Assembly (NCBI RefSeq): GCF_902713615.1
Contig: NC_052171.1
Coordinates: 19,379,952-19,443,951 of the forward strand
Length of the DNA stretch: 64,000 nucleotides
Reading direction: 5' to 3'
Source: Scyliorhinus canicula
Taxonomy: Eukaryota
Shown here piece by piece: positions 33,911 through 34,264 of the stretch. Each line of letters begins with the position of its first letter. The first letter of the stretch is position 1. The notes beneath the pieces were generated by a model, which did no database searches, was not told the DNA's origin, and saw only the letters and a list, made by a program, of their open reading frames with translations. Both the position numbers and the translations under genes were made by a program.

Positions 33911-34264
33911 TTACAGAGTGTTGTAATCAGTGAGGGGTTGAGGGGTTTGGTGGAATCCGAAGATGGGGGATTGCACTCTATAGATGGGTGAGGTGCTGGA
34001 ACGAGAGGCTCTCCTCTTCCATTTCCTCAACCTGAGGGTCTGCACTAGGATGATGAGGATCGCGATCACCAACAGTGATTCGATTATGTAGGACATGGAG
34101 TACCACGTCATGAATTTAGTACACCAGGTCTGAACCTCGCTGATCAGAGCTGAGCACTGGGGGTTTGTTGTACTAACATTTACGGTGGGGGTTGTGGGGG
34201 AAACGTGTCTTGTTTCCACACATATACATATGACATTAAACAGTAATAAGTGGGCTTCCATCAT
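33911..34264 (-). CDS. Small type-I membrane protein ORF of the LTR element (117 aa), in the env position
   Basis: AAAATGATGG start, hydrophobic N-terminus, Thr/Pro-rich ectodomain with NVS sequon, TM segment IIESLLVIAILIILV, basic RLRKWKRR and C-terminal YNTL. Confidence 0.65.
   Translation of the reverse strand: MMEAHLLLFNVICICVETRHVSPTTPTVNVSTTNPQCSALISEVQTWCTKFMTWYSMSYIIESLLVIAILIILVQTLRLRKWKRRASRSSTSPIYRVQSPIFGFHQTPQPLTDYNTL

Follow-up and report, generated by a model that had tools for sequence, protein, structure and literature searches.

Evidence for purifying selection on a small predicted membrane-protein gene in the env position of catshark endogenous retroviruses

By comparing four families of endogenous retroviruses (ERVs) in the genome of the catshark Scyliorhinus canicula, we show at the sequence level that one short gene, predicted to encode a membrane protein, occupies the env position in each family, is kept by purifying selection and is preceded by a conserved putative splice acceptor site. 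The element from which the analysis started lies in the window (the whole 64,000-nucleotide stretch of DNA analysed), and the best explanation for it is an env-less, SnRV-like ERV of catsharks that is young and still amplifying. Env-less ERVs are usually thought to copy only within one cell. That such a lineage keeps a membrane gene under strong selection over long divergence suggests that the membrane has kept a part in its life cycle.

Results

The provirus and its relatives

The provirus (32633-42444, minus strand, 9812 bp) is intact, as the preliminary description had held, with a pair of near-identical LTRs (949 bp each, one mismatch between 5′ and 3′ copies), an open pol and a 4-bp target-site duplication on both sides (32629-32632 and 42445-42448). 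On the minus strand, the 5′ LTR (41496..42444; TG...CA, with a TATA-like box at 42025 and a poly(A) signal at 41717) is followed after 5 nt by a PBS-like stretch (41473..41490), which begins TGGCGA and begins identically in the sister families, while a polypurine tract (33582..33592, minus strand) borders the 3′ LTR (32633..33581, minus strand). Between them, gag (39428..41176, minus strand) encodes one CCHC zinc knuckle and no Gly2 myristoylation signal, Gly2 being missing from Gag of three sister elements as well; it stops with a TGA in frame with pol, and we infer that this codon would be read through. The pol frame (35201..39427, minus strand, 1408 aa) contains protease, RT, tether, RNase H and integrase according to Pfam. 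With its LTRs, PBS, PPT, gag and PR-RT-tether-RNase H-IN order, the element is an endogenous member of the Retroviridae. Note that Pol carries a long S/T/P/D-rich extension past the integrase (35201-35750, minus strand), far less conserved than the core yet open in the sister families. Elsewhere in the window, tandem arrays lie at 16735-about 21000, 24085-24370 and 2545-2754 (spacing 17, 9 and 14 nt), several copies of a SINE-like repeat family are spread over its length, and a multi-kb segment (about 42677-48800) recurs at 57965-64000 with a spacing of about 15.29 kb and 96-99% identity, the second copy extending past the window end.

Compared with PDB entries, Pol is retroviral, since it matches foamy and MLV RT at about E 1e-70 and Ty3 at 1e-38, and its nearest database proteins belong to frog and coelacanth elements (45-49%). 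A tree of 33 rows likewise placed the window among frog and coelacanth Pol; as this tree contained neither SnRV nor a loki reference, the label 'SnRV-like' is not phylogenetic and comes from the RT comparison, namely about 58% identity over 134 columns, counted by hand, with the SnRV row in the PMC7947760 supplement. The Loki rows there are, by eye, much less similar. An assignment to the Lokiretroviruses, suggested by dual RNase H and NYNRIN-like labels, was dropped on this comparison; according to PMC7947760, they share dual RNase H and aquatic vertebrate hosts with our element but carry a paramyxovirus-F-like Env, and no F-like Env (PF00523) ORF was found in the catshark element. SnRV also has dual RNase H; it differs in needing a full env for spread and in being a complex virus with four accessory ORFs of 52-205 aa, whereas the catshark lineage is env-less and has one small membrane ORF. 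As a side observation, the nearest frog Pol model extends past its Pol part (residues 1190-1331) through a signal-like stretch and an Ig domain of weak score (E 0.012); this may be no more than a host exon, or it may represent a further surface protein standing where env would be.

A small membrane-protein ORF between pol and the 3′ LTR

The ORF (33911..34264, minus strand; ATG at 34264, stop at 33911) encodes 117 aa and sits 936 nt past the pol stop and 329 nt ahead of the 3′ LTR, so that its coordinates and its place in the env slot agree with the preliminary description; the plus strand is riddled with stops. The other features listed there are also present in the sequence: a signal-like start, a Thr/Pro-rich stalk with an NVS sequon, Cys37 and Cys48, a TM segment, the motif RLRKWKRR and a terminal YNTL of the YxxL type. 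From hydropathy (KD9 of 2.9 at the N-terminus, KD19 of 2.5 at the TM) and conservation, the protein looks like a type I membrane protein with a signal peptide. Its signal-peptide-like segment (aa 1 to about 18; 34211..34264, minus strand) evolves fast and stays hydrophobic, and is followed by the S/T/P-rich stalk with the conserved N-glycan sequon (aa 19-44; 34133..34210, minus strand), by an amphipathic W/F-rich membrane-proximal helix leading into the TM (aa 45-77; 34034..34132, minus strand; invariant Cys48 and Glu62) and by a polybasic, predicted cytoplasmic stretch with a conserved tail (aa 78-111; 33932..34033, minus strand). The hydrophobic moment of aa 45-55 is 0.5-0.6 in all four proteins tested; in the tail, the basic stretch alone scores as amphipathic. 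Sister ORFs share a hydrophobic start and a small-residue cleavage-like site, which suggests that the signal is cleaved, and none of 23 ORFs has the Gly2 of a myristoylation motif.

This organization is hard to obtain by chance. When the post-pol region was base-shuffled 2000 times, an ATG-initiated ORF of at least 100 aa arose in 87 shuffles, and one with both hydrophobic segments in a single shuffle; together with a dN/dS of about 0.22 (see below), this bears out the earlier opinion that the topology is too coherent for a random ORF.

The ORF shows none of the Env hallmarks looked for (furin site, fusion peptide, heptad repeats, TLV_coat or F-type match), no Pfam env family matches 13 members, and of 78 gamma-type env matches in the genome, the 20 loci inspected all go unscored by the family profile; they sit in other lineages, with integrases 27-43% identical. 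Neither word-seeded protein search nor PDB profile search revealed a homologue, and the ESM Atlas gave leads that were all under 0.9. The TMEM156 family (PF15106) is matched weakly by 8 of 13 related members at profile positions 170-221, the best match reaching 19.1 bits (E 0.00087) against a curated cut-off of 27 bits. Capture of TMEM156 was considered and is not confirmed by the genome matches, of which 9 of the 10 inspected (out of 45) are the ERV ORF and none is a host exon. No description of the ORF was found in the literature searched, a coverage that ended short of subscription journals and Repbase; as far as these searches reach, the protein forms an undescribed family.

Copies of the young family

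A protein search returned 5328 candidates, of which 150 were scored and 135 were identical to the window's protein, and among the first 30 copies the ORF seemed hyper-conserved. Such a sample is biased by its own query, the copies having been chosen by ORF sequence, and copies were therefore resampled by their pol end, upon which the hyper-conservation disappeared. Among 29 loci picked in this way, one stopped short of the ORF; of the 28 scored, 25 keep the ORF intact end to end, two are frameshifted close to the start, and in one the end is altered. Free disruption in other copies had been named beforehand as evidence against a gene, and these counts show none. Nucleotide diversity (pi) is 0.007 in the ORF versus 0.008-0.009 in the immediate flanks and is thus no clear departure from them, so that the young family on its own is no proof of selection. 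The pol frame is fully open in 8 of 12 longer copies. At two loci (G000:C3:20729561-20738977 and G000:C2:225875582-225885015), copies lie about 8.87 kb apart, a spacing equal to the element length minus one LTR, which suggests tandem proviruses with a common LTR.

Sister families share the gene and its place

Searched with HMMER, 1.84 billion representatives yielded four matches, all of them gene models of Scyliorhinus canicula or S. torazame, and no homologue outside catsharks. Using two of these matches and a Pfam lead as queries, we reached three older families in the same genome with the same gene in the same place and no env in any of them. Wherever copies are complete enough to judge, their layout is LTR-gag-pol-spacer-ORF-LTR, with LTR pairs 93-98% identical. 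The distance from the pol end to the ATG is 773-892 nt in 14 of 15 measurable copies (the spacer is deleted in the other), and 12 long sister stretches contain no env frame; seven copies with unusually long open frames were examined as env candidates and set aside as chance upstream extensions. A sister copy with a full env, the finding that would have made the ORF a mere deletion remnant, was thus not encountered, and a recent internal collapse of env is not supported, as none of the lineage copies examined carries an env of greater length. Judging from these sequences, the ORF is neither a chance ORF nor the product of a recent env deletion. In one sister provirus (L106:1091-6378), the integrase is interrupted by an insertion of roughly 5.8 kb with long open frames of its own.

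Conservation and selection between families

Between families, protein identity is 49-62% and synonymous sites are near saturation. The sister copies were selected via queries other than the window's protein, yet they are enriched for intact ORFs (a full ORF was obtained from 22 of 28 sister loci, the other six being broken or off the extraction pattern). In this sample, dN/dS between families is 0.22-0.23 for the whole ORF; the divergence of the window's ORF from family A at first, second and third codon positions is 0.27/0.20/0.49. In nine single-pair tests, pN/pS was 0.24-0.47, with bootstrap upper limits of at most 0.60 in all nine, compared with 0.08-0.14 for the integrase core. On these substitution patterns, the ORF is a gene under purifying selection between families.

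Constraint is distributed unevenly over the protein. In comparisons of the window's ORF with its sisters, dN/dS is 0.70-0.98 in the signal, 0.41-0.64 in the stalk, 0.10-0.13 in the membrane-proximal helix and TM, and 0.06-0.07 in the tail, where it equals the level of the integrase core (0.06); between families A and B, the tail value rises to 0.34, i.e., a weaker constraint. Across 13 aligned members W47, C48, F51, W54, S56, S58, Y59 and E62 are invariant, as are the basic stretch and several tail residues, and the N-glycan sequon is nearly so. Concerning the two cysteines first described, Cys48 is invariant, whereas Cys37, hence the Cys37-Cys48 pair, is confined to the window's family. A role for the terminal YxxL motif is not borne out, as the motif is missing from all 22 aligned sister-family ORFs.

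Spacer, splice acceptor and expression

Upstream of the ORF, a non-coding spacer block (34520..34830, minus strand) is 69-84% identical across all four families and outdoes its surroundings in cross-family conservation. It has several predicted hairpins, with two-sided change in 7 of 51 predicted pairs (a hairpin near 34617-34600 has such changes), no Rfam match near threshold and no coding periodicity; a 158-aa frame in the spacer, likewise without Pfam match or coding periodicity, was rejected as a gene. The block is probably a cis-acting RNA element, possibly one for RNA export or packaging.

Closer to the ORF lies a putative splice acceptor region (34345..34403, minus strand) with CTAAC, ACAG at 34370-34367 and AG at 34347-34346, followed by a purine-rich leader. 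The homologous acceptor AG, about 80 nt ahead of the ATG, was looked for in 34 copies and located in 32, of which 30 read YAG; in the window's family it is AAG, with the ACAG lying 21 nt upstream. Candidate donors for a subgenomic RNA lie at 41918 and 41465, in the LTR or leader, and would be joined to 34366 or 34345. The nine longer homologue records are without exception gene models terminating in the ORF, six of them named host genes, and at least six records join at the homologous acceptor AG, as judged by translated frame in what is annotation only. The catshark models ending in the ORF include HEPACAM2-like, SUGCT, B3GAT1-like, CFAP36, KIAA1958 and a galectin-domain gene, which raises the possibility that copies within introns capture host transcripts and supply them with a membrane anchor. 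The basic stretch ahead of the ATG was considered as an N-terminal extension of the protein and discarded because its frame is interrupted in 8 of 29 copies; translation probably begins at the ATG. In a single-cell RNA run of which about 1 read in 100 was sampled, 5620 reads fell on the element in both orientations; 47 were poly(A)-tailed, with the tail joined at 41694, 23 nt past the LTR AATAAA. None of the 10 joints listed in four RNA runs is a splice joint of the element.

Discussion

When a trans-acting gene standing in place of env stays under selection for a long time, this is the classic indication that spread requires it. In this context, we tentatively favour, at somewhat less than an even chance, a surface protein that replaces env, docks particles at membranes and helps their transfer between cells. 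The protein would be made from a spliced subgenomic RNA, enter the ER via its signal peptide and become glycosylated, and could dimerise or cluster through its sole invariant Cys and the intramembrane Glu. Its polybasic, conserved tail would bind the non-myristoylated Gag or a host adaptor, so that particles dock at the membrane, and the W/F-rich amphipathic helix would bend or destabilise that membrane, helping capsids to bud or to enter a neighbouring cell, e.g., a germ cell. That the protein itself fuses cells is the least supported step and somewhat unlikely; the stronger proposition that an env-free lineage has passed capsids over four successive families, for example from soma to germline, via an independently evolved, roughly 100-residue glycosylated fusogen is doubtful to the same degree. 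Several points weigh against docking and transfer. The missing myristoylation motif, the apparent cleavable signal and the glycosylated stalk are unlike FAST and sORF2 proteins; no splice joint is listed and the acceptor of the window's family is AAG; the tail shows weaker constraint in the comparison of family A with family B; plain retrotransposition within cells could also account for a high copy number in the absence of env; and the young-family ORF is as variable as its flanks, a sample that does not show a present-day function.

Other origins and roles must be weighed against docking and transfer. The protein may be a host-modulating accessory factor, in a Vpu-, M2- or E3-like role, that would bind a host membrane protein by its intramembrane Glu or its tail, or act as a small channel; the element would meanwhile copy inside cells or borrow the Env of other proviruses. 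We regard this as possible, if on the unlikely side: SnRV itself carries accessory ORFs, Cys48 and Glu62 suit intramembrane partner binding, proviruses with gamma-type env are present elsewhere in the genome, and there are weak look-alikes (M2, K1, adenovirus E3A, TMEM156), all under any threshold. However, the ORF sits where env would, behind an env-like acceptor, the searches gave no homologue among accessory proteins, and host modulation would pay mostly with somatic spread, a route that an env-less element presumably lacks. Signal, W-rich membrane-proximal helix, TM and tail are also the pieces that an internal env deletion would leave, and position and acceptor suit env, from which one could derive an ancient collapse that joined the signal peptide to the membrane-proximal region, TM and tail, the tail still serving assembly or budding. 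Such an origin is distinctly unlikely in our estimation, given that a longer form occurs in no copy examined, that none of the nine longer homologue records is an env, all being chimeras with host genes or uncharacterised gene models, and that neither the ORF profile on the 20 gamma-type loci nor Pfam on the 13 members makes the connection. As for a non-functional passenger, or an RNA element mimicking an ORF, the young family, where conservation of the ORF does not exceed that of its flanks, would allow it; the strong third-position excess and, with synonymous sites near saturation, an interfamily dN/dS close to 0.2 largely refute it, the conserved spacer block having no such codon periodicity, and we consider it hardly credible.

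Known small surface proteins of viruses and retroelements offer partial parallels. The preliminary description had compared the layout with that of the reovirus FAST proteins (p10, p14, p15), an analogy that is still plausible, and the polybasic stretch, the size of the ectodomain and the amphipathic membrane-proximal helix do fit, alongside the TM. The resemblance ends where the catshark ORF has no myristoylated or conserved cystine-loop fusion peptide and no clear amphipathic helix in the tail past the basic stretch, and where the sequence suggests a type I glycoprotein with a cleaved signal; FAST proteins are not known to have a cleavable signal peptide. Measured by what defines FAST and sORF2 proteins, size agrees (60-210 aa, single TM, ectodomain of 10-50 aa; here a mature ectodomain of about 35-40 aa), and so do the K/R residues, at least three within 15 residues past the TM in all aligned members, whereas neither MGxxxS/T nor a conserved cystine-loop fusion peptide is present. 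The protein thus lies outside FAST/sORF2 by myristoylation and probably by topology as well, although it has their layout. The sORF2 proteins of the insect MDG1 group are alike in belonging to env-less elements and in being short single-TM proteins with an amphipathic ectodomain motif and a polybasic patch. According to 10.1101/2025.03.14.642691, sORF2 occurs in arthropod Metaviridae, is 63-107 aa long and mostly myristoylated with an ectodomain of about 30 aa, and in some cases lies downstream of pol. The catshark ORF is vertebrate and retroviral in contrast, with a signal-like start, a glycan sequon and no myristoylation motif, and we claim no sequence homology to sORF2. CrocERV31 (PMC4299795) has a nectin3 ORF with three Ig domains in place of env and under purifying selection; it thus resembles our lineage as an ERV in which a selected surface-protein ORF replaces env, and differs in that its ORF is a recognisable captured host mRNA, while no host source was found for the catshark ORF. 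Further background comes from 10.1101/2021.11.23.469661, PMC12193657 and PMC7830690.

Altogether, if capsids of this lineage do move between cells, env-independent spread, so far a matter of insect retrotransposons, would extend to vertebrate retroviruses, and if the protein is a fusogen, it would be the counterpart in vertebrate Retroviridae of insect sORF2, i.e., a signal-cleaved, non-myristoylated minimal fusogen. If it is an accessory protein, it would still represent an undescribed protein family present in many copies. For the catshark host, the acceptor appears to capture host transcripts, which would thereby gain a new membrane-anchored end.
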